In this document: positions 29,760 to 42,022 of the stretch, one piece after another
Numbering within the stretch: the stretch's first letter is position 1
Layout of the letters: the number at the start of each line of letters is the position of its first letter
Assembly: GCF_050920415.1 (NCBI RefSeq)
Contig: NZ_CP169309.1
Origin: Escherichia coli
GTDB lineage: Bacteria > Pseudomonadota > Gammaproteobacteria > Enterobacterales > Enterobacteriaceae
Direction: 5' to 3' (one strand)
DNA length: 64,000 nucleotides
The notes under the pieces: generated by a model
Told to the model about the DNA's origin: nothing
The model's database searches: none
Seen by the model: the letters and a program-made list of their open reading frames with translations, nothing else
Made by a program: the position numbers and the translations under genes

Positions 29760-30398
29760 ATGCCCGGGCGCTTTGAACTAAAACCAACCCTGGAGAAAGT
29801 CTGGCACGCGCCGGACAATTTTCGCTTCATGGACCCGCTACCGCCGATGCATCGTCGGGGGATCATTATTGCCGCTATTGTATTGGTGGTCGGATTTCTA
29901 CTCCCGTCGGATGATACGCCAAACGCGCCGGTGGTGACGCGTGAAGCACAGTTAGATATTCAGTCGCAATCACAACCGCCGACAGAAGAACAGCTGCGGG
30001 CGCAATTAGTCACACCACAAAATGATCCTGATCAGGTGGCTCCGGTCGCTCCAGAACCGATACAGGAAGGCCAACCGGAAGAGCAGCCGCAAACCTCGCA
30101 AGTGCAACCTTTCCAGCCAGATAGCGGAATTGACAATCAATGGCGCTCTTATCGTGTCGAACCCGGTAAAACAATGGCGCAGCTGTTCCGCGACCACGGA
30201 CTGCCCGCTACCGATGTCTATGCAATGGCGCAGGTAGAAGGCGCGGATAAGCCACTGAGTAATTTGCAAAATGGGCAGATGGTGAAAATCCGCCAGAACG
30301 CCAGCGGCGTGGTGACGGGCTTAACCATTGATACGGGAAATAATCAACAGGTTCTGTTTACCCGCCAGCCGGATGGCAGTTTTATTCGCGCGCGGTAG
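29760..30398 (+). CDS. ytfB: OapA-domain cell-division/envelope protein YtfB
   Basis: GAGGAA Shine-Dalgarno then ATG 29760 ([19 protein letters not shown]..., 212 aa); TM anchor and Pro/Gln-rich linker. Confidence 0.9.
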
Positions 30399-31029
30399 AT
30401 GAAGGGTCAACCAGAAGCCAGCTAAGGATCGTCTCTTTGATGACCTTACGCCTGGCTTCCAGTGCCTGCGGTGAAACCATACTGATGTGATAAACCAGGC
30501 CAAGCGTATGTTGGTTGATCAAATAATATCCTCCAAGAGCAGCAATATTAATATTCACCTGCAACGGGTCGATATCTGGCTTAAAAATATTGCGCCGTTT
30601 GCCTTCAGCTAATAATGACTCCATTAACTGTAAGTGTGCGTGGTTAATTTCTAAAAGGCGCTGTGATTTTGCATAATGCACCCCTTTACTCTGGTTTTCA
30701 CTATGCACAATTTTTAAAAACCAGGGGTTAGCAATGTAATAATCCCAGGTGAAATCGATAATTTTCTCAATGGCTTTTTGTGGCGGAAGACCTGAGAAAT
30801 CAAGGGATTTTTCTTTTTGCCGAATATCATTCCAGGTATATTCCAGCACTTCGATAAATAAATTTTCTTTATTACCAAAGTGATGATAAACCGTCTGTTT
30901 ACTGCACTCCGCGGCCTTGACGATATTATCGACTCTGGCCCCTTCGTAACCATATTCGGCAAATTCATTAACCGCACATAACAACAGCTTTTCCTTCAGG
31001 CTTTGTACGTTGCTGGTATCAAGATACAT
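30382..31029 (-). CDS. TetR/AcrR-family transcriptional regulator (islet regulator)
   Basis: ORF track start 31089 is GTG; ATG 31027-31029 gives [58 protein letters not shown] (TetR N-terminal HTH), 215 aa. Divergent from the downstream operon; 3' end overlaps the ytfB 3' end by 17 bp. Confidence 0.85.
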
Positions 31030-31151
31030 TCCGCTTCCCCACGTCTTCTTCGTGATGACTATCTTAACCCGATTTGTTAGAAGCTCCACTAAAATGGCTA
31101 AAAACTCGCAATTTCATCGGGTTATCAAATGCTCTGTGATCATTATCGCAT

Positions 31152-31173
31152 ATCAACCAACTAGATGGTTGAT
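31152..31173. promoter_or_regulatory. Candidate TetR operator (22 bp palindrome) in the islet divergent promoter
   Basis: ATCAACCA-ACTAGA-TGGTTGAT: perfect 8 bp inverted arms with a 6 bp spacer, between the regulator start (31029) and the operon start (31241). Confidence 0.4.
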
Positions 31174-31240: not shown

Positions 31241-32032
31241 ATGAAGTCAACACGTCCTGTTGCTGTCATCACTGGAGCCGCACGTGGTATTGGAAAGGGC
31301 TGTGCACTGGAACTTGCGCGTGGCGGATTTAATCTGCTGATTAATGATCGTCCGGATGCCGACAGCGTAGAAAAATTACATGCCACACAACAAGAATGTC
31401 TGGCGGAAGGCGTGGAAGTGATTTGCTTCCCTGCTGATGTTGGCGATCTCTCCCTTCATGAAGAGATGCTCGACGCGGCGCAAAACCAGTGGGGACGTCT
31501 GGACTGTCTACTCAACAACGCAGGCATTTCAGTGAAAAAACGCGGTGACCTCCTCGACCTCGAACCAGACAGCTTCGACCAAAACATTGCCATTAACACC
31601 CGTGCGCCGTTCTTCCTTGCTCAGGCATTCAGTAAGCGATTACTGGCACAGCCGAAACCGGAAGCAGAACTGCCGCACCGCTCGATTATTTTTGTCAGTT
31701 CCATAAACGCCATCATGCTGGCGATGAATCGCGGCGAATATACCATTGCAAAAACTGCCGTCTCCGCCGCAGCTCGTCTGTTTGCCGCTCGCCTTTGCAA
31801 TGAACAAATTGGCGTTTATGAAGTGCGCCCTGGCCTAATCAAAACCGATATGACCATTCCGGCAACGGCTTATTACGACGAACTGATTGCTAAGGGGTTA
31901 GTGCCGTGGGGACGTTGGGGTTATCCGGCTGATATTGCCTCAACGGTCCGCGCGATGGCGGAAGGCAAACTGATTTACACCTGTGGTCAGGCGGTCGCCA
32001 TCGACGGCGGCTTAAGTATGCCGCGCTTCTGA
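31241..32032 (+). CDS. Short-chain dehydrogenase/reductase (SDR) family oxidoreductase
   Basis: 263 aa ORF; TGAARGIG cofactor-binding motif, NNAG, and catalytic Y-x3-K (EYTIAK); AGAGGG Shine-Dalgarno. Confidence 0.85.
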   Translation: MKSTRPVAVITGAARGIGKGCALELARGGFNLLINDRPDADSVEKLHATQQECLAEGVEVICFPADVGDLSLHEEMLDAAQNQWGRLDCLLNNAGISVKKRGDLLDLEPDSFDQNIAINTRAPFFLAQAFSKRLLAQPKPEAELPHRSIIFVSSINAIMLAMNRGEYTIAKTAVSAAARLFAARLCNEQIGVYEVRPGLIKTDMTIPATAYYDELIAKGLVPWGRWGYPADIASTVRAMAEGKLIYTCGQAVAIDGGLSMPRF

Positions 32033-32041
32033 GGCTGAATC

Positions 32042-32884
32042 ATGAGAGATCTGTTACAACGCCCGGATTTATTCAGTATCAATACTGCGACACTGGGCTA
32101 TAAAACGCCGCTACCTGCCATTATTGATGCCTGCGCCGCACGCGGTATTGGCGCGATTGCCCCCTGGCGCAGGGAGTTGCAGGGTGAAGATCTCCAGCAA
32201 ATCGCCCGCCAGCTTGCTGCCAGTAACATGAGCGTTTCCGGTTTGTGTCGTAGCACCTATTACACCGCGCCGACGCTGACGGAACGCAAACTGGCGATTG
32301 ATGATAACCGCCGGGCGCTGGACGACGCCGCTGTACTGAACGCCGCCTGTTATATGCAGGTGGTTGGCGGTCTGCCAATGGGAACAAAAGATCTGTACGA
32401 AGCACGGGAACAGGTGAAACAAGGGATTCGCCAGTTGCTGCCACATTCGAAAGAGGTCGGCGTGCCAATTGCACTGGAGCCACTGCACCCGATGACTGCT
32501 GCCGATCGTTCTTGTCTGTGCACATTACGTCAGGCGCTGGACTGGTGTGATGAACTCGATCCCGATGGCGAATTTGGCCTCGGCGTGGCGGTAGATGTCT
32601 ACCATGTCTGGTGGGACCCGGATCTCGCCAGTCAGATCCTGCGTGCCGGAAAACGCATCCTCGCGTTTCATGTTTCCGACTGGCTGGTGCCAACCACCGA
32701 TTTAGTCAATGATCGGGGAATGCCGGGAGATGGCGTCATTAATATTCCCTCTATTCGTCGGCTGGTTGAAAACGCCGGATTTAATGGCGCTATTGAACTG
32801 GAAATATTCTCGCCGTACTGGTGGCAGAAAGATATTAACAGCACGCTGGATATTAGCGTCGATCGCATCGCGCATTATTGCTAA
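32042..32884 (+). CDS. Sugar-phosphate isomerase/epimerase-like TIM-barrel enzyme (xylose-isomerase-like fold)
   Basis: 280 aa ORF with the LEP / FHVSD signature pattern typical of this fold; 9 nt downstream of the SDR stop. Confidence 0.7.
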   Translation: MRDLLQRPDLFSINTATLGYKTPLPAIIDACAARGIGAIAPWRRELQGEDLQQIARQLAASNMSVSGLCRSTYYTAPTLTERKLAIDDNRRALDDAAVLNAACYMQVVGGLPMGTKDLYEAREQVKQGIRQLLPHSKEVGVPIALEPLHPMTAADRSCLCTLRQALDWCDELDPDGEFGLGVAVDVYHVWWDPDLASQILRAGKRILAFHVSDWLVPTTDLVNDRGMPGDGVINIPSIRRLVENAGFNGAIELEIFSPYWWQKDINSTLDISVDRIAHYC

Positions 32885-32893
32885 GGAATGATC

Positions 32894-33670
32894 ATGAGTG
32901 ACCAACCCGTTCTGTTCAGCAGAGCGGCGGCTTCCTGCCGCCTGACATTGAACCGTGAAGATAAATGTCATGCTATTAATGAAGAAATGATCGAATCTCT
33001 CGACCATTATTTAAATGAAATTGAAAACGACACCACATTACGATTAGTCGAATTAACGGCAACCGGCGATAAATTCTTTTGTGCGGGCGGCGATATTAAA
33101 TCGTGGTCAGCCTATTCGCCATTAGATATGGGCAGAAAATGGATTAAACGCGGCAATGACGTTTTTAATCGCCTGCGCAATTTACCTCAATTAACGGTTG
33201 CGAATCTCAACGGTCATACTATCGGCGGTGGTATTGAACTTGCCTTGTGCTGCGATATTCGTATTGCCCGCCCCAGTGCGAAATTCTCTAATCCGGAAGT
33301 AATGCTCGGCATGGTGCCTGGCTGGATGGGCATTGAACGCGTGCTTAATCAGGTCGGTCCGGTGGTCGGTCGCCAGATGCTGATGCTGGGTAAACGCCTG
33401 ACGGCGCAGGAAGCTCAGGCGGCGAATTTAATTGATGAAGTGGTAGAAAAAGAACAGGTGGAAAGCTGGATGGCGAATCAGTTAGCGCAGCTGGAAAAAT
33501 GCGGTCCGGTGGCGCTCGCACATATCAAGCAACTGATTCTGGCTCTAGAAAATAAACATGCTGATTACCCGCACCAGTTACTGGCTGGATTAATGTCCGC
33601 CACTCAGGATTGCCAGCAGGCGACGCGCGCATTTGCCGAAAAAAGTAGCGTGAGCTTCCAAAATCAATAA
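32894..33670 (+). CDS. Enoyl-CoA hydratase/isomerase (crotonase) family protein
   Basis: Crotonase hallmarks FFCAGGDIKSW and GHTIGGGIELALCCDIRIA; ATG 32894 is preferred over 32888 on Shine-Dalgarno spacing. Confidence 0.85.
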   Translation: MSDQPVLFSRAAASCRLTLNREDKCHAINEEMIESLDHYLNEIENDTTLRLVELTATGDKFFCAGGDIKSWSAYSPLDMGRKWIKRGNDVFNRLRNLPQLTVANLNGHTIGGGIELALCCDIRIARPSAKFSNPEVMLGMVPGWMGIERVLNQVGPVVGRQMLMLGKRLTAQEAQAANLIDEVVEKEQVESWMANQLAQLEKCGPVALAHIKQLILALENKHADYPHQLLAGLMSATQDCQQATRAFAEKSSVSFQNQ

Positions 33671-33679
33671 GGAAATTGT

Positions 33680-35221
33680 ATGCGTAAGATAACAACCGCC
33701 GAGACACTGGCGGCGCAAATTCAGGACGGCGCAACCATTGCCATTAGCGGTAATGGCGGCGGCATGGTGGAAGCGGACCATATTCTGGCTGCTATTGAAG
33801 CGCGTTTCCTGCAAACCGGACACCCGCGCGATCTGACATTAATCCACTCGCTGGGCATTGGCGATCGCGACTGCAAAGGCACTAACCGCTTCGCTCATGC
33901 AGATATGCTCAAACGCATCATTGCCGGACATTTTACCTGGTCGCCCAAGATGCAGGATCTGGTGAAAAACAATGCTATTGAAGCCTACTGCTTCCCTGGT
34001 GGCGTAATTCAGGCACTGCTGCGGGAGATCGGTGCCGGACGTCCAGGGCTTTTTACCCACGTTGGACTGGGATCGTTTGTTGATCCGCGCAACGGCGGCG
34101 GTAAGTCGAACGCCAGCACCACTGAGGATCTGGTAGAACTGATTGAAATCGACGGTGAAACCAAACTTCGTTATCGCCCTTTCAAAGTGGATTACGCGAT
34201 TTTGCGTGGCACTTATGCTGATCCGCGTGGCAACGTCAGCCTCGAAGAAGAGGCGATTGATATGGATAGCTATTCCATGGCGCTGGCAGCACACAACAGC
34301 GGCGGCAAAGTGTTCGTACAGGTGCGCGATGTGCTGGAAGCTGGTGCCATTGAACCACGCCGGGTCAAATTACCGGGCATTCTGGTTGATGGCATCGTTG
34401 AACACCGCGAACAACCACAAACCTATCTTGGCGGTTACGATCTGACCATTAGCGGTCAGCATCGCCGTCTAAGTTCTAACGACGCAATTGAACTGGTTAG
34501 TCATCCGGTGCGCCGCCTGATTGCCCGTCGGGCAGCACGCGAACTGGTAGCTGGCGCTTCAACCAACTTTGGCTTTGGCATTCCCGGCGGCATTCCTGGG
34601 GTTGCACTGCGCGAAGGCGTGCCTTATCAAAGTTTATGGCTGAGCGTCGAGCAAGGCGTGCATAACGGTATGATGCTGGATGATGCTCTGTTCGGCTGCG
34701 CCCGTAACGCCGATGCCATTATTCCATCACTCGATCAATTCGAATTCTACAGTGGCGGAGGGATCGATATCACCTTCCTCGGCATGGGAGAGATGGATCA
34801 GCATGGTAACGTCAACGTCTCCCATCTCAATGGCAATCTCATTGGCCCCGGCGGATTTCTCGAAATTGCGCAAAACGCCCGTAAAGTGGTGTTCTGTGGC
34901 ACGTTCGACGCCAAAGGTAGCAAGATTGATGTAACACCAGATGGCTTGCATATCGCCCAGTCAGGTCAAATCCCTAAACTGGTTACCCAGGTGGAAAAAA
35001 TCACTTTTAGCGCCGCCTACGCACAGCAAAGCGGTCAGGAAGTGTTGTATATCACTGAACGTGCAGTATTCCAGTTAACGGCAGAAGGCGTTGAATTAAT
35101 TGAAATCGCGCCGGGTGTGGAGATTGAACGCGACATTCTGCCGCATATGGCTTTCCGTCCAATTATCAATCAGCCACGCCTGATGGAAAGTAGCCTGTTT
35201 ACGCCGATGGAGGATGCATGA
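33680..35221 (+). CDS. Fused family-I CoA-transferase (acyl-CoA:acetate/3-ketoacid CoA-transferase-like)
   Basis: 513 aa ORF about the size of fused alpha/beta family-I CoA-transferases, with glycine-rich loops (ISGNGGG, SGGGIDITFLGMGE); AAGGA Shine-Dalgarno. Confidence 0.7.
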   Translation: MRKITTAETLAAQIQDGATIAISGNGGGMVEADHILAAIEARFLQTGHPRDLTLIHSLGIGDRDCKGTNRFAHADMLKRIIAGHFTWSPKMQDLVKNNAIEAYCFPGGVIQALLREIGAGRPGLFTHVGLGSFVDPRNGGGKSNASTTEDLVELIEIDGETKLRYRPFKVDYAILRGTYADPRGNVSLEEEAIDMDSYSMALAAHNSGGKVFVQVRDVLEAGAIEPRRVKLPGILVDGIVEHREQPQTYLGGYDLTISGQHRRLSSNDAIELVSHPVRRLIARRAARELVAGASTNFGFGIPGGIPGVALREGVPYQSLWLSVEQGVHNGMMLDDALFGCARNADAIIPSLDQFEFYSGGGIDITFLGMGEMDQHGNVNVSHLNGNLIGPGGFLEIAQNARKVVFCGTFDAKGSKIDVTPDGLHIAQSGQIPKLVTQVEKITFSAAYAQQSGQEVLYITERAVFQLTAEGVELIEIAPGVEIERDILPHMAFRPIINQPRLMESSLFTPMEDA

Positions 35222-37299
35222 GTCAGCTTGATGACACCCTCCTTGATGCGCTGACGCACGTCACTTTCCCGAAGGGTTTTGTGTCAGCAGAGCCAGCGTC
35301 AATTGTCACGGTTGAAGATGTCGATTACCCGATCTGGCAAGTTGATGCGCTAGTCGTTGGTAGCGGCGCGGCAGGGCTGCGCGCAGCGGTTGAACTTAAG
35401 CGCCGCCAGCAAAATGTGCTGATCGCCACCGCCGGGTTATATATGGGGACATCGGCATGTTCTGGTTCCGATAAACAGACGCTGTTTACCGCCGCTACCG
35501 CGGGCAACGGCGATAACTTCGCTAAACTGGCGGAAGCACTGGCGAGCGGTGGGGCGATGGATCACGACACCGCTTATGTCGAAGCGGTAGGTTCTCTGCA
35601 CACTCTTGGCGGGTTGCAATATCTTGGTCTGGAATTACCGGAAGATCGCTATGGCGCAATTCTTCGTTATCAAACCGACCATGACGAAGCCGGGCGAGCA
35701 ACCTCGTGTGGGCCGCGTACTTCTCGCCTAATGGTGAAAGTATTGCTGGAGGAAGTGCAGCGTCTTGCCATACCACTACTGACCAGTGCAACGGTGATTA
35801 AGCTCCTGCATCAGCACGGAGAGAATGGCGAAGATCGCGTTGCGGGGGCTATTCTCGCAACCGGTTCCCGCGCCTATAACCCTTGGGGGCTGGCTATTGT
35901 GACGGCGCCCAATGTGGTACTGGCAACGGGCGGACCGGGCGAGCTTTATCGCGACAGTGTTTATCCACATAAATGCTTCGGCTCGCTGGGGCTGGCGCTG
36001 GAAGAAGGTCTGACGCTAACCAATCTGACCGAAAGCCAGTTTGGTATAGGCACGCCGCGCAGCACGTTTCCGTGGAATTTGTCCGGCACCTATGTACAGG
36101 TGATCCCATATATCTATTCCGTGGATGCCGGGGGCAACGAGTATAACTTCCTCGCAGATTACTATCGCACCACCCAGGAGCTGGCTTCAAACATCTTCCG
36201 TAAAGGCTATCAGTGGCCGTTTCACGCCACACGAGTGATGGATTTTGGCTCCAGCTTGTTAGATATGGCAGTAGCGCAAGAGCAGCAATCAGGGCGTCAG
36301 GTATTTATGGATTTCAATCGCAATCCTGAACCTGTGCCGGGTGACCTGCCGTTCTCATTAGATCGACTGGACGACGACGTTCGCGCGTATCTGGAAAATA
36401 ACGACGCTCTGGCACCATCGCCCATCGAACGACTGCAACGAATGAATCCGCTGTCTATCTCGCTGTATAAGATGCACGGTTACGATCTCACCACGCAGCC
36501 ATTGCAGTTTGCCATGAATAATCAGCATATGAATGGCGGCATTGAAGTGGATATCTGGGGGCAAACCTCCCTGTCCGGCTGTTTCGCCGTGGGGGAAGTT
36601 GCTGGCACACACGGCGTCACTCGCCCTGGTGGTGCGGCATTGAATGCCGGGCAGGTTTTTGCTGTTCGTCTGGCACGTTTTATTGGTTGCACGCAAAAGC
36701 GGTCCGTTGAGGATGATGTCGCGCAGCTAGTAGCCTCACCTCTGCATACAATCAGAGAAGTTATCGCTCAGGCACTGGCAAACGAGAACGGAATGACGCT
36801 GGCAACGGTAAAAGAAAAAATCCAGGCGCGAATGTCTGATTACGCGGGATTTATTTGCCATGCTGATAAAGTTCGTCACGCCGCCCGTGACGCCATGCTG
36901 TTAAATGAATTTGCGCAGCAACATGGTCTAACTATCAACCACGCCGGTGAAATTGCCGAGCTATTTATGTGGCGGCATATGGCATTAACATCCGCTGCGG
37001 TGTTAAGCCAGCTATCACATTATATTGATGCTGGCGGTGGTAGTCGTGGAGCGCGGATGATTATTGATCCACAAGGAGAATATCTTCCACAAACTCGTCG
37101 CGGCGCAATCGAAGATTGGCGTTTTCGCTCTGAACAAGCTGAAGATAAAAATCACAGACTAACTCTCTCCTTTTCACAAGGTTTATTTATTAATGAAATT
37201 AAGTTCTTGAGAAACTTACCGCATATTAAAGGTATTTACTTTGAGAAGAATTGGCCTGATTTTCTTAACGGAACAATTTATCAGACACGGCATGAATAA
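35218..37299 (+). CDS. FAD-binding flavoprotein of the fumarate reductase / succinate dehydrogenase / L-aspartate oxidase superfamily
   Basis: 693 aa ORF; N-terminal dinucleotide-binding motif DALVVGSGAAGLRAAVEL; ATG overlaps the CoA-transferase stop (ATGA); the last ~300 nt are AT-rich. Confidence 0.75.
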   Translation: MSQLDDTLLDALTHVTFPKGFVSAEPASIVTVEDVDYPIWQVDALVVGSGAAGLRAAVELKRRQQNVLIATAGLYMGTSACSGSDKQTLFTAATAGNGDNFAKLAEALASGGAMDHDTAYVEAVGSLHTLGGLQYLGLELPEDRYGAILRYQTDHDEAGRATSCGPRTSRLMVKVLLEEVQRLAIPLLTSATVIKLLHQHGENGEDRVAGAILATGSRAYNPWGLAIVTAPNVVLATGGPGELYRDSVYPHKCFGSLGLALEEGLTLTNLTESQFGIGTPRSTFPWNLSGTYVQVIPYIYSVDAGGNEYNFLADYYRTTQELASNIFRKGYQWPFHATRVMDFGSSLLDMAVAQEQQSGRQVFMDFNRNPEPVPGDLPFSLDRLDDDVRAYLENNDALAPSPIERLQRMNPLSISLYKMHGYDLTTQPLQFAMNNQHMNGGIEVDIWGQTSLSGCFAVGEVAGTHGVTRPGGAALNAGQVFAVRLARFIGCTQKRSVEDDVAQLVASPLHTIREVIAQALANENGMTLATVKEKIQARMSDYAGFICHADKVRHAARDAMLLNEFAQQHGLTINHAGEIAELFMWRHMALTSAAVLSQLSHYIDAGGGSRGARMIIDPQGEYLPQTRRGAIEDWRFRSEQAEDKNHRLTLSFSQGLFINEIKFLRNLPHIKGIYFEKNWPDFLNGTIYQTRHE

Positions 37300-37319
37300 T
37301 ATTGCAAAGGTTAATCACT

Positions 37320-37796
37320 ATGCGAAATATAATCAGATCTATTAATTCATTGCTTTCCACATTGAACATTACCATTTTGGCAATTATTGTGATGTGCGTT
37401 ACATGGCAAGTAGTAGCACGATTTATCTTTAAAAGCCCCAGCATTTTTACAGATGAACTTAGTCGTTTACTATTTATTTGTCTTGGACTTTTTGGTGGTG
37501 CTTATACTGCCGGACAAAACCGACATCTGGCCATTGATCTTCTGCCAATGATGCTAAAAGGAAAATCCCGACGTTATTTATTCTTATGTATTCAGGCCAT
37601 TGTTATTCTTTTTGCCTCTATCATTATGGTTTATGGTGGCGGGTTATTAACACTGGACACATTTGATTCAGGGCAAACTTCTCCGGCTTTAGGCTGGCAG
37701 ATGGGATATATTTACATGAGCATTCCAATAAGTGGCATCCTTATTATTATATACACCATAGATACAGTTTTAACCGAACTTAAACAACCACTCTAA
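37320..37796 (+). CDS. TRAP transporter small permease (DctQ-like)
   Basis: ORF track start 37302 is TTG; ATG 37320 with AAGG Shine-Dalgarno gives a ~158 aa four-TM protein; strongly AT-rich. Confidence 0.8.
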   Translation: MRNIIRSINSLLSTLNITILAIIVMCVTWQVVARFIFKSPSIFTDELSRLLFICLGLFGGAYTAGQNRHLAIDLLPMMLKGKSRRYLFLCIQAIVILFASIIMVYGGGLLTLDTFDSGQTSPALGWQMGYIYMSIPISGILIIIYTIDTVLTELKQPL

Positions 37797-37818
37797 AATA
37801 AGTAGGGATGGAGAAAAC

Positions 37819-39120
37819 ATGGATTACTGGTTACCGATCATTGTGTTATTTGGTGCTTTCTTTTTTATGTTGGCATTAGGTGTTCCTATTGTCTATGCTA
37901 TTGGTTTATCAACACTGGCATCAATTACTACACAACTCGATTTCAACTCAGCGTTAAGTGTGGTTTCCCAAAAGTTAGCCTCCGGGTTAGATAGTTTTAC
38001 GTTGTTGGCAATCCCATTTTTTATTTTGTCTGGCAACATTATGAATCACGGAGGAATAGCGCGACGATTAATCAACTTTGCCCGAATTCTCGGCGGTCGT
38101 CTGCCAGGCTCACTTGCCCACTGTAATATTCTTGCCAATATGCTGTTCGGGGCAATTTCTGGTTCAGCCGTGGCTTCGGCGGCTGCGATGGGCGGCGTCA
38201 TGCATCCGCAACAGGTTAAAGAGGGCTACGACCCGGCATTCAGTACTGCAGTTAACGTTGCCTCTGCCCCGACGGGTTTGCTTATTCCACCCAGTAATAC
38301 GTTAATCGTCTATTCACTGGTCAGTGGTGGTACTTCTATTGCCGCACTGTTCCTGGCAGGATATGTCCCGGGAATTTTATTGGGCCTGGCGCTGATGACT
38401 GTGGCTGGTATTATCGCGGTACGCCGGGGTTATCCAAAACCAGAACGTCCGACTTTGCGCCAGGCTGGAGTGGCAATATGGATGGCGATCCCCAGTATTT
38501 TCCTGATTGTATTAATTATGGGTGGTGTACTAAGCGGTATTTTTACCCCGACAGAAGCATCTGCAATTGCGGTAATTTATACCCTTTTCCTTGCACTGGT
38601 TCTTTATCGTGAAATATCAGTTAAAGATTTACCTAAGATATTTCTGGAGTCCGTCATTACCACTGCAATTGTCTTGTTGTTAATTGGTTCTTCAATGGGA
38701 ATGTCATGGGCAATGTCAAACGCTGACGTTCCCTTCCTGATTCTCGATTTGCTTAACACTATTTCTGACAATCCAATAATCATCCTGCTTATTATCAATA
38801 TTATCCTGTTGATTATCGGCACATTTATGGATATGACACCGGCAGTACTGATTTTTACGCCGATATTTTTACCCGTTGTCACCGAACTGGGTATGGACCC
38901 GATTCACTTTGGTATTGTCATGGTACTGAACATGTGTATCGGTATTTGTACTCCGCCTGTAGGCAGTGTGTTATTTGTCGGTTGTAGTGTATCTAAATTA
39001 CCGATTAATAAAATTATCAAACCTATGCTGCCATTCTATGCCGTGATGGTATTGGTGCTGGCAATGGTTACCTATATTCCGCAAATCAGTATGGCATTGC
39101 CAAGAGCACTGGGCTACTGA
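37819..39120 (+). CDS. TRAP transporter large permease (DctM-like)
   Basis: 433 aa polytopic membrane ORF MDYWLPIIVLFGAFFFMLALGVPIVYAIGL...; AT-rich. Confidence 0.88.
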   Translation: MDYWLPIIVLFGAFFFMLALGVPIVYAIGLSTLASITTQLDFNSALSVVSQKLASGLDSFTLLAIPFFILSGNIMNHGGIARRLINFARILGGRLPGSLAHCNILANMLFGAISGSAVASAAAMGGVMHPQQVKEGYDPAFSTAVNVASAPTGLLIPPSNTLIVYSLVSGGTSIAALFLAGYVPGILLGLALMTVAGIIAVRRGYPKPERPTLRQAGVAIWMAIPSIFLIVLIMGGVLSGIFTPTEASAIAVIYTLFLALVLYREISVKDLPKIFLESVITTAIVLLLIGSSMGMSWAMSNADVPFLILDLLNTISDNPIIILLIINIILLIIGTFMDMTPAVLIFTPIFLPVVTELGMDPIHFGIVMVLNMCIGICTPPVGSVLFVGCSVSKLPINKIIKPMLPFYAVMVLVLAMVTYIPQISMALPRALGY

Positions 39121-39172
39121 TATGCATTAACTGGCGGCACCTGCCGCCATATTTATTAGAAAAGGAACATCT

Positions 39173-40144
39173 ATGAAAATAAAAGTATCCGCTGGCATTA
39201 TCGGTGCTGTTCTTATGCTATCCGCAAGCCAGTCCTGGGCAGTAACATTAAAACTTAGCCATAATCAGGATAAATCTCATCCTGTTCATAAAGCGATGGA
39301 GTTCTTTGCGAAAAAGAGCAAAGAGTACTCTAACGGTGATATTACTATTCGTATTTATCCAAATGGAACATTGGGTACTCAACGAGAAACAATGGAGCTG
39401 ATTCGTTCTGGTGCTATTCCGCTGGTAAAAACCAATGCGGCGGAGATGGAAGCCTTCGAGAGTTCGTATAAAATATTTAGCCTGCCTTATTTGTTCCGCG
39501 ATCGTGATCATTATTATCAGGTCATGCAAGGCGATATCGGAAGGAAAATCCTCGACTCAACGAAAAGCAAAGGTTATTTCGGGCTGACTTTCTATGATGG
39601 AGGCGCCCGCAGTTTCTACGGTAATAAACCGGTACTGAAACCAGACGATCTGAAAGGCATGAAAGTCCGTGTCCAGCCAAGTCCTGGCGCAGTTGAAATG
39701 ATCAAAGTCATGGGCGGTAACCCGACGCCACTGGATTACGGCGAGCTGTATACGGCCTTACAGCAGGGCGTGGTCGATATGGCAGAAAACAGCGTGATGG
39801 CACTGACCACTATGCGTCACGGTGAAGTGGCAAAATCCTTTAGCCTTGATGAGCACACCATGGTGCCCGATGTGGTTCTGATGAGTAATGCTGCATTTGA
39901 TAAACTCAGCCCTGAAAATCAGGCAGTTATATTAAAAGCAGCGAAAGAATCGATGAGTTACATGAAGGAGTTATGGAGCGAGCAAGAGAAACAAGAATTT
40001 GCAAAACTGGATAAAATGGGCGTAAAAGTCTACCCGGTTGATAAAGCACCGTTTATCGAGAAAGTACAACCGATGTACGCAAACTTCGCTAAAGATAACC
40101 CTGCCCTTGCCCCAATGCTGGCTGATATTCAGGCGGCTAAGTAA
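39173..40144 (+). CDS. TRAP transporter periplasmic solute-binding protein (DctP-like)
   Basis: 323 aa ORF with signal peptide MKIKVSAGIIGAVLMLSASQSWA; last gene of the operon. Confidence 0.88.
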   Translation: MKIKVSAGIIGAVLMLSASQSWAVTLKLSHNQDKSHPVHKAMEFFAKKSKEYSNGDITIRIYPNGTLGTQRETMELIRSGAIPLVKTNAAEMEAFESSYKIFSLPYLFRDRDHYYQVMQGDIGRKILDSTKSKGYFGLTFYDGGARSFYGNKPVLKPDDLKGMKVRVQPSPGAVEMIKVMGGNPTPLDYGELYTALQQGVVDMAENSVMALTTMRHGEVAKSFSLDEHTMVPDVVLMSNAAFDKLSPENQAVILKAAKESMSYMKELWSEQEKQEFAKLDKMGVKVYPVDKAPFIEKVQPMYANFAKDNPALAPMLADIQAAK

Positions 40145-40201: not shown

Positions 40202-40236
40202 AAAAGCAAAACGCCGACCAATGGTCGGCGTTTTTA
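40202..40236. terminator. Bidirectional rho-independent terminator (islet operon / rplI)
   Basis: ACGCCGACCA-A-TGGTCGGCGT perfect hairpin flanked by AAAAGCAAA upstream and TTTTT downstream; sits between the convergent TRAP binding-protein gene and rplI. Confidence 0.85.
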
Positions 40237-41299: not shown

Positions 41300-41713
<414 letters not shown>

Positions 41714-42022
41714 TTATTCAGCCTCCTGTCTGGGTCAGCCGAATCCCGGGGAGGCAAGGAACGTGTTAAAGGTCGGCTGAAAAATGACGCGTTATAGTAC
41801 TGACATACCCCGTTAAACTCAAGGCCAGCCGACAAATAAATCTCATCTTTCACCAAATCGTACTAACACGCTGATTTGAAGTTCATCACACTTCATCATG
41901 GTGTTTTTTTGAACAACTGCATCAGAAATGGTCACCATCAACTTCTTTATCATTGATTAAAATTAAATCAGAAGATCACCACAAGAGGAGAGCACACAAA
42001 GTCAGCCGTCGAGGAGGTATCT

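Follow-up and report, generated by a model that had tools for sequence, protein, structure and literature searches.

A stand-alone FrdA/NadB-like flavoprotein as the possible flavin step of a sugar-acid operon in Escherichia coli

An open reading frame at positions 35218..37299 (plus strand, ATG start, 693 aa) of the 64,000-nucleotide stretch of Escherichia coli DNA analysed here, referred to as the window, encodes a real, intact and stand-alone flavoprotein of the NadB/SdhA-like type. We tentatively regard it, with somewhat less than even confidence, as the flavin-dependent reaction in an operon for breaking down an imported sugar acid, most likely a D-glucuronate-like hexuronate, along a pathway not described so far. 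It might act as an enoate-type reductase or desaturase, in which case a free sugar-acid intermediate is the most likely substrate. Its family numbers hundreds of divergent members, found in many bacteria and in an Asgard archaeon, and lies within a superfamily that is among the best studied; a literature search for the island and for the family returned no paper on either.

Results

Reading frame and cofactor domain

The translation is uninterrupted, and the RefSeq/PGAP annotation of a 100%-identical genome gives the identical coding sequence with the identical start. Values of dN/dS between 0.05 and 0.13 against the E. coli, Klebsiella and Salmonella orthologues indicate purifying selection. 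The start codon, ATG, shares bases with the TGA of the gene for a 513-aa CoA-transferase 5′ of it (...GGAGGATGCATGA...), as noted in the preliminary description, and a GGAGG Shine-Dalgarno sequence lies 4 nt upstream of this start codon. Residues 45–53 carry the FAD fingerprint V-V-G-S-G-A-A-G of the GxGxxG dinucleotide fold, and Pfam FAD_binding_2 (PF00890) spans residues 43–475 (E 9.7e-26), which bears out the N-terminal signature of the FrdA/SdhA/NadB superfamily described previously. The Pfam scan returned nothing besides this domain, that is, neither Fe–S or extra cofactor domains nor Succ_DH_flav_C, and no cysteine motif is visible in the sequence. An Fe–S subunit or membrane anchor is, in agreement with the same description, not encoded nearby, where the neighbours are the CoA-transferase and the TRAP genes dctQ, dctM and dctP. 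The protein exceeds FrdA (602 aa) by ~90 aa and NadB (540 aa) by ~150 aa; the earlier label "oversized" holds in this relative sense only, because 650–700 aa is the usual length in its own family.

Composition and regulation of the operon

The flavoprotein gene is part of an eight-gene operon between ytfB and rplI, all genes of which lie on the plus strand. The first gene (31241..32032) encodes a classical 263-aa short-chain dehydrogenase/reductase (SDR) with TGxxxGxG and YxxxK motifs that matches PRK12745 (NCBIfam) with 420 bits against a cut-off of 250; KduD is also among its NCBIfam matches, and an Asp at the end of β2 suggests NAD(H) as cofactor. It is followed by a xylose-isomerase-like TIM barrel of the sugar phosphate isomerase/epimerase family (32042..32884), closest to the uncharacterised SMc04130 (PDB 3QC0/3JU2, E 1e-85), whose orthologues carry Pfam AP_endonuc_2. 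The crotonase (32894..33670, PGAP start), of the enoyl-CoA hydratase/dehydratase family, has both catalytic Glu residues (GGGIELAL, NPEVMLG), and its NCBIfam matches all remain under their cut-offs. The CoA-transferase (33680..35221) is a YdiF-like family I enzyme (PDB 2AHU, YdiF, E 4.5e-116) with a SENG-like VEQG Glu motif and a FadX-like NCBIfam match under the cut-off. Downstream of the flavoprotein gene, a TRAP transporter is encoded by dctQ (small permease, 37320..37796, PGAP; NCBIfam YiaM-like, 9e-10), dctM (large permease, 37819..39120; TIGR00786, 461 bits against a cut-off of 268) and dctP (solute-binding protein, 39173..40144, by NCBIfam), with PDB matches 4OVR, 4X8R, 4N8Y, 4N15 and 4N91 at E 1e-73 to 1e-62. 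A terminator scan located a palindrome with a 12-bp stem and A/T runs on either side (40208..40234) between dctP and the convergent rplI, a probable bidirectional terminator.

A TetR/AcrR-family regulator is encoded divergently from the operon (30382..31029, minus strand; PGAP annotation in the identical genome), and its orthologues match Pfam TetR_N and TetR_C_29. The divergent promoter region contains the motif TGTGA-N6-TCGCA (31135..31150), unique in the window, which we take to be a CRP site from its resemblance to the consensus. Its half-sites are kept in E. coli, Klebsiella, Salmonella and Brenneria amid otherwise divergent intergenic DNA, and the operon is probably under CRP control. 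An inverted-repeat search further yielded a palindrome with perfect 8-bp arms, ATCAACCA-N6-TGGTTGAT (31152..31173), nearly unchanged in Klebsiella and Salmonella and still discernible in Brenneria, which we infer to be a candidate TetR operator. In the best explanation, the operon is governed by the TetR repressor and probably also by CRP. An Rfam scan found no riboswitch or leader in the operon, the RpsF leader lying outside it; a promoter consensus scan did not exceed shuffled expectation and was therefore left out of the argument.

Distribution and transport

Of 5426 complete E. coli genomes, 3126 (58%) carry the operon, which also occurs in synteny in Klebsiella and Salmonella. All that K-12 retains is a remnant, the pseudogene ytfA, which corresponds to the C-terminal 133 aa of the regulator at 97% identity, and the island is absent from O157:H7 Sakai. 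Brenneria keeps SDR, TIM barrel and flavoprotein without CoA-transferase or hydratase. The CoA-dependent deoxyribonate cluster of Klebsiella michiganensis (PMC6365646) consists of another gene set (CoA synthetase, thiolase, MFS pair) and was set aside.

The E. coli DctP is nearest to glucuronate/galacturonate-binding proteins, a group to which 4N15, 4N91 and 4MHF belong (PMC7660916). In Klebsiella and Salmonella the transporter position is taken by an ACS-family MFS protein that matches TIGR00893, a model named D-galactonate transporter, with 314–317 bits. The Brenneria transporter is nearest to the aromatic-acid PcaK family (369 bits), which counts against a hexuronate. Transporter similarity overall points to a hexuronate-like sugar acid as the imported substrate.

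Loss of the canonical active site

The best solved relatives of the flavoprotein are ~21% identical, the top structural match being NadB (PDB 1KNR/1CHU, 21%), which likewise stands alone; relative to NadB, the flavoprotein has additional N-terminal (1–35), cap (~323–343) and C-terminal (618–693) segments. It is best explained as a cytoplasmic protein that binds FAD non-covalently in the multidomain fold of L-aspartate oxidase, SdhA and FrdA. The histidine of FrdA that forms 8-alpha-N3-histidyl FAD (His44, RSHT motif) falls on a gap by hhalign, and MAFFT places it on the variable Met76, in a column occupied by G, L, W or M across 72 members. The divergence suspected at this position thus amounts to the lack of a counterpart. 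FrdA and SdhA, in contrast, combine the covalent-FAD histidine with FrdB/SdhB and anchor subunits.

Five of the six catalytic or binding residues of FrdA are replaced. H232 aligns with G276, H355 with Q436, R287 with S345 and T244/E245 with W286/N287, where the alignment is of low confidence, as is the part of the profile alignment from which the cap-domain equivalences derive; R390 alone is kept, as R469. Relative to NadB, Glu121 corresponds to Gln152, His244 (in QFHPT) to the invariant Gly276 and His351 (in HYTCGG) to Gln436, the TREGGHS region reads YxTDHD, and Arg386 is kept. The NCBIfam models for nadB (TIGR00551, 98 bits, cut-off 453), sdhA/frdA (TIGR01812, 87 bits, cut-off 567) and flavocytochrome c (37 bits, cut-off 285) all score far under their cut-offs, and neither curated HMM score nor closest fold places the protein among flavocytochrome-c-type soluble reductases or 3-ketosteroid dehydrogenases (KstD). 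Some family members are listed under generic names, for example "succinate dehydrogenase flavoprotein subunit", and the fold is common to all of these enzymes. An ordinary L-aspartate oxidase, FrdA/SdhA or KstD orthologue, the outcome against which the preliminary description was to be judged, is nevertheless refuted by HMM scores, residue alignment and gene context, and we assign it a negligible probability: the canonical active site is lost, an Fe–S partner is lacking, and separate nadB, frdA and sdhA genes exist elsewhere in E. coli.

A separate family with a conserved signature

The family comprises 417 representatives at E<1e-30, 650–700 aa in length, and more than 593 genome loci; its names in AFDB and NCBI are generic only. 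Across 72 members drawn from every type of gene context, about 40 residues do not vary, among them the carboxylate-binding Arg469. The signature motifs GSDKQT, YxTDHD, GPxTS, SQ(F)G, WNxSGxYxQ, KGYxWP, SSxxD, QHxNGG, GExxGxHGxxRPGGxALNxGQ and SRG, invariant in sets of 41 and 72 aligned members, are all found in the flavoprotein of the window. A distant branch is 35–41% identical and stems mostly from metagenome genomes of anaerobe-rich lineages. The best explanation is a separate large branch in which the residues that bind fumarate or aspartate have been exchanged for another, strictly conserved set.

Gene neighbours across the family

In the close branch (n=38), the neighbours include GFO (21), GMC (19), ABC (16), SDR (10), TIM (9) and KdgK (8, all adjacent); in the distant branch (n=25), they include SDR (17), OYE (13, counted within six genes of the flavoprotein), Eda (7), KdgK (5), GH28 (3) and BNR_4 (3), the latter being the ulvan-lyase fold. 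Ulvan-lyase-like or GH28 neighbours thus occur in some loci only. The SDR partners cluster family-wide with the SDR of the E. coli operon, the isomerase-type partner is a TIM barrel, which adjoins the flavoprotein repeatedly in several phyla, or in some loci a cupin, and LacI regulators and sugar ABC systems belong to the dominant context. Individual loci illustrate the coupling: one operon reads OYE-SDR-Eda-FAD-KdgK-GH28-GH28 (L072), another TIM-[OYE::FAD fusion]-SDR (L090), the fusion occurring once in the family (P0146), and in L030 the FAD and KdgK genes overlap by 4 nt. Some neighbouring PfkB kinases score under the KdgK cut-off, and none of the neighbours tested gave an equivalog-level match to KduI/KduD, UxaC or UxuA, as no cluster protein reached the cut-offs. 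Discarded as partners were a GltD-like neighbour in Pseudescherichia-type loci, which is gltBD, and the housekeeping genes UvrA and MtnA flanking Phycisphaerae operons.

This context resembles the KduI/KduD-KdgK-Eda branch in that the flavoprotein family has an SDR, an isomerase-type partner, KDG kinase and KDPG aldolase as neighbours, whereas the textbook hexuronate/pectin pathway has no counterpart of the flavoprotein, nor of OYE where present. NadB, in contrast, acts in NAD synthesis. The pairing of an OYE-like module with FAD_binding_2 in family relatives recalls the soluble NADH:fumarate/acrylate/cinnamate reductases Klebsiella FRD and Vibrio ARD (OYE-like + FMN_bind + FAD_binding_2), and an OYE-like domain feeding an FAD_binding_2 reductase has precedent (bioRxiv 10.1101/2022.01.20.477176). 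The E. coli flavoprotein and operon contain neither an OYE-like nor an FMN_bind domain, and the relatives with fused or adjacent OYE show no FMN_bind match, so that any likeness does not go beyond function.

Within six genes of the flavoprotein, a CoA-transferase is encoded in 3 of 63 non-Escherichia loci, with a few more by tblastn, and one is nearby in ~5 of ~70 loci. Adjacency of flavoprotein and CoA-transferase recurs independently in Clostridia (L076), and two further loci, L064 (Desulfobacterales) and L011 (a betaproteobacterium), have the enzyme in the same cluster as the flavoprotein. Several CoA-type loci encode a conventional acyl-CoA dehydrogenase (ACAD) as well, L011 additionally ETF, and MaoC-like genes occur among them.

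Discussion

Substrate class, chemistry at C4–C5, a KDG-type product and the roles of individual residues are inferred in the following scheme. Arg469, together with Gln436/His437, would hold a hexuronate-derived intermediate by its free carboxylate over flavin N5, with hydride/proton chemistry across the Cα/Cβ bond (C5–C4 of the uronate skeleton) and the new cap-domain residues Lys329/Tyr331, or Asp85-Lys86, as putative acid/base groups. Flavoprotein, SDR and TIM-barrel isomerase together would yield a 2-keto-3-deoxy acid of the KDG/DKI type, and KDG kinase and KDPG aldolase, host-encoded in E. coli and clustered with the flavoprotein in other phyla, would finish the pathway. In the distant branch, an OYE-like FMN protein is the probable electron-exchange partner of the flavin. 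CoA-transferase and crotonase would be a lineage-specific addition, probably for a neighbouring CoA-assisted β-elimination that would not supply the substrate of the flavoprotein.

Several points count against this scheme. E. coli already possesses ExuT/UxaCAB/UxuAB and KduID for hexuronates, and no redox partner for the flavoprotein is evident in this species. A route from hexuronate via DKI and DKII to KDG can be written with CoA-transferase, crotonase, TIM barrel and SDR alone, which would leave a redox flavoenzyme without an obligatory role; the actual substrate may therefore differ in its level of oxidation. The sugar-type ABC importers and GMC oxidoreductases of alphaproteobacterial loci suggest a neutral sugar there. 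Candidates for the exact reaction are those of a uronate 4,5-dehydratase, an unsaturated-uronate enoate reductase and an aldonate 2-dehydrogenase, as well as a C4 oxidation with subsequent decarboxylation.

Among the alternatives, oxidation of a hydroxy acid is unlikely, though it deserves consideration: a NadB-like α-hydroxy-acid dehydrogenase/oxidase would convert an aldonate C2-OH (or a uronate C5-OH) to the 2-keto acid, which would enter a 2-ketogluconate-type kinase/reductase route or serve epimerisation with the SDR. SdhA and FrdA oxidise malate to enol-oxaloacetate, a precedent for such chemistry, and the NadB-like stand-alone structure, the Arg469 retained for a carboxylate, the oxidative neighbours (GMC, GFO, ALDH), the PfkB kinases under cut-off and a D-2-hydroxyacid dehydrogenase in L032 are all compatible with it. 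However, the family abounds in lineages that offer no evident oxidant to an oxidase standing alone, the fused and adjacent OYE are better explained by electron input, and KDPG-aldolase neighbours imply a 3-deoxy product. Less probable still is a substrate in the form of a CoA ester, which the preliminary description had raised as a possibility in suggesting that the flavoprotein could act on the product of the CoA-transferase. Carnitine respiration combines the CoA-transferase CaiB, the crotonase CaiD and the flavoprotein reductase CaiA, and the E. coli operon similarly unites transporter, CoA-transferase, crotonase-type (de)hydratase and flavoprotein; the transferase would form a sugar-acyl- or hydroxyacyl-CoA, the crotonase dehydrate it to the 2-enoyl-CoA, and the flavoprotein reduce or, in reverse, desaturate the ester. 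The ATGA coupling, the catalytic Glu residues of crotonase and transferase and the clusters in L076, L064 and L011 agree with this order of events. CaiB is, however, a family-III transferase, CaiA has an acyl-CoA dehydrogenase fold fed by FixABCX, and the operon encodes an FrdA-like flavoprotein without ETF. The rarity of CoA-transferases among the loci, where the partners are otherwise SDR/GFO, KDG kinase, KDPG aldolase, TIM barrel and OYE, argues against a CoA ester, as do signature residues that are identical in CoA-type and CoA-free loci, the reduced Brenneria gene set and the acyl-CoA dehydrogenases (with ETF in L011), through which the redox role on CoA esters is already filled in several CoA-type loci.

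A reductase or desaturase for alicyclic or aromatic carboxylates, such as shikimate/quinate-type or hydroxycinnamate acids, with GFO and TIM barrel as IolG/IolE-like enzymes of the inositol type, appears improbable. The Brenneria transporter, a transferase paralogous to YdiF, whose K-12 gene lies beside ydiB/aroD, the ACAD/ETF and MaoC-like genes of CoA-type loci and the existence of cinnamate/acrylate reductases built from OYE and FAD_binding_2 speak for such acids. Against them, the prevailing gene context is one of KDG kinase/KDPG aldolase coupling, of GH28 and ulvan-lyase-like genes, and of LacI regulators and sugar ABC systems; the transporters of the enterobacterial loci belong to the sugar-acid type, and the TIM barrel gave no match to the dehydroshikimate dehydratase models of NCBIfam.

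Returning to the hexuronate reading, it is conceivable, although we consider it rather doubtful, that the family defines an unrecognised and widespread route from hexuronate (or unsaturated uronate) to KDG, in which a NadB/FrdA-like flavoenzyme acts with SDR and TIM isomerase, with an OYE-like partner in the distant branch and a CoA-assisted variant in Enterobacteriaceae. If so, more than half of E. coli strains would possess a second hexuronate pathway, with CoA-thioester chemistry that is rare in sugar-acid catabolism. The operon is in any case an intact, selected and regulated catabolic unit in 58% of complete E. coli genomes. Solving its function could reveal the use of pectin-, ulvan- or glucuronide-derived uronates without the textbook Uxa/Uxu/Kdu enzymes, a strain-variable nutrient niche for gut Enterobacteriaceae and a new use of the fumarate-reductase scaffold.

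The flavoprotein and its active site

The open reading frame at 35218–37299 on the plus strand, 693 codons from ATG to TAA, encodes the flavoprotein, and RefSeq/PGAP calls the same coding sequence in an E. coli chromosome that matches at 100% identity. Its dinucleotide-binding fingerprint is VVGSGAAG (residues 45–53), and its sole significant Pfam match is FAD_binding_2 (residues 43–475, E 9.7e-26), the superfamily to which it belongs; dN/dS values of 0.05–0.13 denote purifying selection. The start codon shares an ATGA with the TGA of the preceding 513-aa CoA-transferase, a GGAGG stands 4 nt upstream, and no Fe–S or anchor subunit is encoded near the gene. The preliminary description, which had proposed a real reading frame with an FAD fingerprint, a start/stop overlap with the CoA-transferase and the lack of an iron–sulfur or membrane-anchor partner among the neighbours, thus holds on these points. 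Two E. coli entries (P0024, 1078 aa; P0031, 1043 aa) carry CoA_trans and FAD_binding_2 on one polypeptide and are probably frameshift or annotation fusions over the ATGA overlap, not true fusions.

We compared the flavoprotein with E. coli FrdA, SdhA and NadB by profile–profile alignment (probability 99.9, 503 columns). The covalent-FAD histidine of FrdA/SdhA has no counterpart, which agrees with the divergence suspected earlier at this position. FrdA His232 (QYHPT) aligns with the invariant Gly276, His355 (HYTMGG) with the invariant Gln436, which an invariant His437 follows, and the proton-donor Arg287 with Ser345, which is preceded by a family-specific insert of 20 residues bearing an invariant Lys329-Gly-Tyr331-x-Trp333-Pro motif. 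Of the listed FrdA site residues Arg390 alone survives, in the form of Arg469; the C-terminal ESRG motif has likewise been conserved (Arg610-Gly611). Judged from this alignment, the dicarboxylate site has been lost, the carboxylate-binding arginine has been kept and a new set of invariant residues is present, and the protein can be classed neither with the fumarate reductases nor with the aspartate oxidases. In every defining feature tested it departs from SdhA/FrdA, NadB, the flavocytochrome-c-type reductases and KstD, and at most it works as they do in N5 hydride chemistry beside a carboxylate; an ordinary NadB, FrdA or KstD orthologue is for practical purposes ruled out. The added length lies in residues 1–35, in cap-domain insertions and in a conserved C-terminal segment (618–693); the protein is oversized, as had been claimed, relative to FrdA and NadB, but of normal length within its own family.

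When 1.84 billion cluster representatives were scanned exhaustively with HMMER, 417 related proteins emerged at E<1e-30, the full-length ones measuring 600–720 aa, and a scan of species-representative genomes gave more than 593 loci, with further ones from AFDB50. The family occurs in Enterobacterales, Rhizobiales, Rhodobacterales, Planctomycetota, Lentisphaerota, Verrucomicrobiota, Aminicenantes, Clostridia, Spirochaetes, Desulfobacterales and one Asgard archaeon, under database names that are generic throughout. About 40 positions are invariant across 72 members sharing 35–100% identity: GSDKQT 83–88, Y151-x-T-D-H-D, GPxTS, Q274/G276, WNxSGxYxQ 286–294, K329/Y331/W333, S345/S346/D349, R405, Q436/H437/N439, E460/R469/N476 and R610/G611. 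This uniformity points to one chemistry across the family, and its members probably share one reactive substrate moiety. Neither the family nor the operon is described by a curated model or by any paper in the library that was searched.

Operon organization and distribution

The window is Escherichia chromosome, in which the flavoprotein gene is the fifth of eight operon genes with short or overlapping junctions: an SDR (31241–32032), a xylose-isomerase-like TIM barrel (32042–32884), a crotonase (32894–33670), a YdiF-like family-I CoA-transferase (33680–35221), the flavoprotein and TRAP DctQ/M/P (37320–40144). A TetR gene (30382–31029) is divergent from the operon, and a strong palindromic hairpin (40208–40234) separates the latter from the convergent rplI. 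The divergent promoter region contains a perfect palindrome (31152–31173) and, adjoining it, a CRP-like site TGTGA-N6-TCGCA (31135–31150), putatively the TetR operator and a CRP site; both are kept in Klebsiella, Salmonella and partly Brenneria, where the surrounding DNA has diverged. In the 52-nt dctM–dctP gap, a GC-rich hairpin of 7 pairs followed by a T-rich tract (39132–39149) might attenuate internally or stabilise the mRNA, thereby setting the ratio of solute-binding protein (SBP) to permease. The RpsF leader upstream of rpsF-priB-rpsR-rplI (41693–41777, minus strand; Rfam RF02893, 110 bits) is ordinary and has no connection with the flavoprotein finding.

The operon block, situated between ytfB and rplI, occurs in 3126 of the 5426 complete E. 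coli genomes. In Klebsiella grimontii/oxytoca and Salmonella enterica this chromosomal site likewise holds the five enzyme genes and TetR, with the operon ending in an ACS-family MFS transporter instead of TRAP DctQMP (L086:12128-13405 and L087:12127-13404). This is a clean transporter swap, the rest of the unit being syntenic. In K-12 and O157 Sakai the site is occupied by yjfZ, in Sakai together with IS609. The K-12 pseudogene ytfA corresponds to the last 133 residues of the operon TetR at 97% identity, and a 102-nt remnant of the SDR gene adjoins it (L091:3588-4096; window 30382–30784 and 31330–31431). From these remnants and the shared enterobacterial site it follows that the operon is ancestral in Enterobacteriaceae and was deleted in some lineages; origin as a recent island is rejected on the same evidence.

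The source strain seems to come from a divergent Escherichia lineage labelled E. coli. Between 24000 and 48000, flanking core genes share only ~90–96% identity with the E. coli representative of GTDB (99% for rplI), just 2 of 5426 complete genomes match a 3.6-kb query at 99% identity or more, and dS inside the operon is 0.3–0.9 relative to the species representative (L004). Window 36500–37500, which covers the 3′ third of the flavoprotein gene and the start of dctQ, is just 74–80% identical to this representative, compared with 90–96% for the remainder of the operon and its flanks; protein identities are 86% for the flavoprotein, 91% for DctQ and 97–99% for their neighbours. Because the patch falls at the junction where Klebsiella and Salmonella have MFS in place of TRAP, recombination or cassette exchange is suggested.

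Gene neighbours across the family

ORFs were called in 80 loci and clustered, and clusters were annotated with NCBIfam and Pfam. In the close branch (identity to the E. coli flavoprotein 50% or more; 38 non-Escherichia loci, neighbours counted within six genes), Gfo/Idh/MocA (GFO) dehydrogenases occur in 21 loci, adjacent in 13, GMC oxidoreductases in 19, sugar ABC importers in 16, LacI in 15, SDRs in 10 and TIM barrels in 9. A KDG-kinase-like PfkB gene is found in 8 loci, adjacent every time, and in L030 overlaps the flavoprotein stop by 4 nt. The module reads TetR|SDR-TIM-FAD in Brenneria, TetR|SDR-GFO-TIM-MFS-FAD in Pseudescherichia, Phytobacter and Mangrovibacter, and TIM-GFO-SDR-FAD in Lentisphaeria, Opitutia and a betaproteobacterium. 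A conserved cluster of Rhizobium, Devosia and Rhodobacteraceae (L019–L049) comprises a sugar ABC importer whose SBP has an HWWTSGGE motif, two cytoplasmic GMC oxidoreductases, a ~103-aa protein that is Dabb-like by eye, LacI, a levoglucosan-dehydrogenase-like GFO enzyme, the flavoprotein and a KDG-kinase-like gene; it looks like an undescribed oxidative sugar pathway of its own.

The distant branch (35–41% identity, 25 loci) is accompanied by SDRs (17 loci), OYE-type flavoproteins (13, in some cases as a fusion with a GltD-like NAD(P)H module), KDPG aldolase (7), KDG kinase (5), GH28 galacturonidases (3) and a BNR_4 protein of ulvan-lyase fold (3), one Phycisphaerales operon reading OYE-SDR-Eda-FAD-KdgK-GH28-GH28. 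P0146 (L090:8001-11255, 1084 aa) is a natural OYE (Oxidored_FMN)::flavoprotein fusion, with the TIM barrel and the SDR encoded on either side of it; genes for an SSF transporter and an aminotransferase lie upstream. A CoA-transferase is near the flavoprotein in few loci only (the E. coli group, L011, L030, L042, L048, L064 and L076), several of which also hold a conventional acyl-CoA dehydrogenase, a MaoC-like hydratase or ETF.

Probable substrate and proposed reaction

Each of the two alternative enterobacterial transporters suggests a sugar acid. The Klebsiella/Salmonella MFS scores 314–317 bits with the NCBIfam model for the D-galactonate transporter, a family that also includes ExuT, GudP and related sugar-acid carriers. 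The E. coli TRAP SBP matches the EFI structures 4OVR, 4X8R, 4N8Y, 4N15 and 4N91 (E 1e-73 to 1e-62); 4N15 and 4N91, like 4MHF, are glucuronate/galacturonate binders (PMC7660916). Salmonella STM3169 contacts glucuronate through Asn35, Gln36, Glu74, Arg150, Arg170, Asn210 and Asp237 (PMC7660916), to which, at an inferred constant offset of four, Asn31, Gln32, Gln70, Arg146, Arg166, Asn206 and Asp233 of the E. coli SBP would correspond, that is, six of seven contacts with one Glu-to-Gln change. The transporters, the coupling to KDG kinase and KDPG aldolase, and the GH28 and lyase-like genes nearby are together explained most economically by a hexuronate-type substrate that would be channelled to a 2-keto-3-deoxy acid. 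Two points count against this reading: the alphaproteobacterial loci look like neutral-sugar systems, and CoA-transferase, crotonase (ECH), TIM barrel and SDR alone could reach KDG on paper, so that the true substrate may differ in oxidation level.

The recurrent partners of the family are NAD-type dehydrogenases, the TIM-barrel isomerase/eliminase-type protein, KDG-pathway enzymes and OYE. On the hexuronate-type reading, the flavoprotein would hold a free carboxylate over flavin N5 and perform fumarate-reductase-type hydride/proton chemistry over C-alpha/C-beta, corresponding to C5–C4 of a uronate skeleton; the four candidate reactions are a net reductive step, an oxidative step, a redox-neutral flavin-assisted elimination and C4 oxidation. 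In the distant branch, it may exchange electrons with the OYE-like partner, a pairing like that reported for Klebsiella NADH:fumarate and Vibrio NADH:acrylate reductases, in which an OYE-like domain feeds a FAD_binding_2 domain.

The preliminary description had suggested that the flavoprotein could act on the CoA-transferase product, and a Cai-like CoA-ester reductase is conceivable for the enterobacterial operon. In E. coli both catalytic Glu residues of the crotonase and the catalytic Glu motif of the CoA-transferase are present, and the two make up a competent CoA-dependent (de)hydration pair. We consider the CoA-ester role improbable, since the flavoprotein signature is identical in CoA-free loci. 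For the same reason, and because Brenneria has SDR-TIM-FAD without crotonase and CoA-transferase and several CoA-type loci already own an acyl-CoA dehydrogenase, the two CoA enzymes are probably an add-on for a neighbouring beta-elimination. A NadB-like alpha-hydroxy-acid 2-dehydrogenase would be chemically conservative and has a small but real chance of being correct; it fits poorly with the many members from anaerobe-rich lineages and with the OYE and aldolase links. That the enzyme serves alicyclic or aromatic acids is very unlikely, the sole hints being the PcaK-like transporter of Brenneria, the YdiF relationship and the ACAD/ETF neighbours.

Uncharacterised and deeply conserved, the family is a clade whose active site has been rebuilt; it is set in carbohydrate and sugar-acid catabolism and unusually joined in Enterobacteriaceae with CoA-thioester enzymes. 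The case is not bizarre: the operon represents an orphan pathway, well defined, within the pan-genome of the bacterium that has been studied best.
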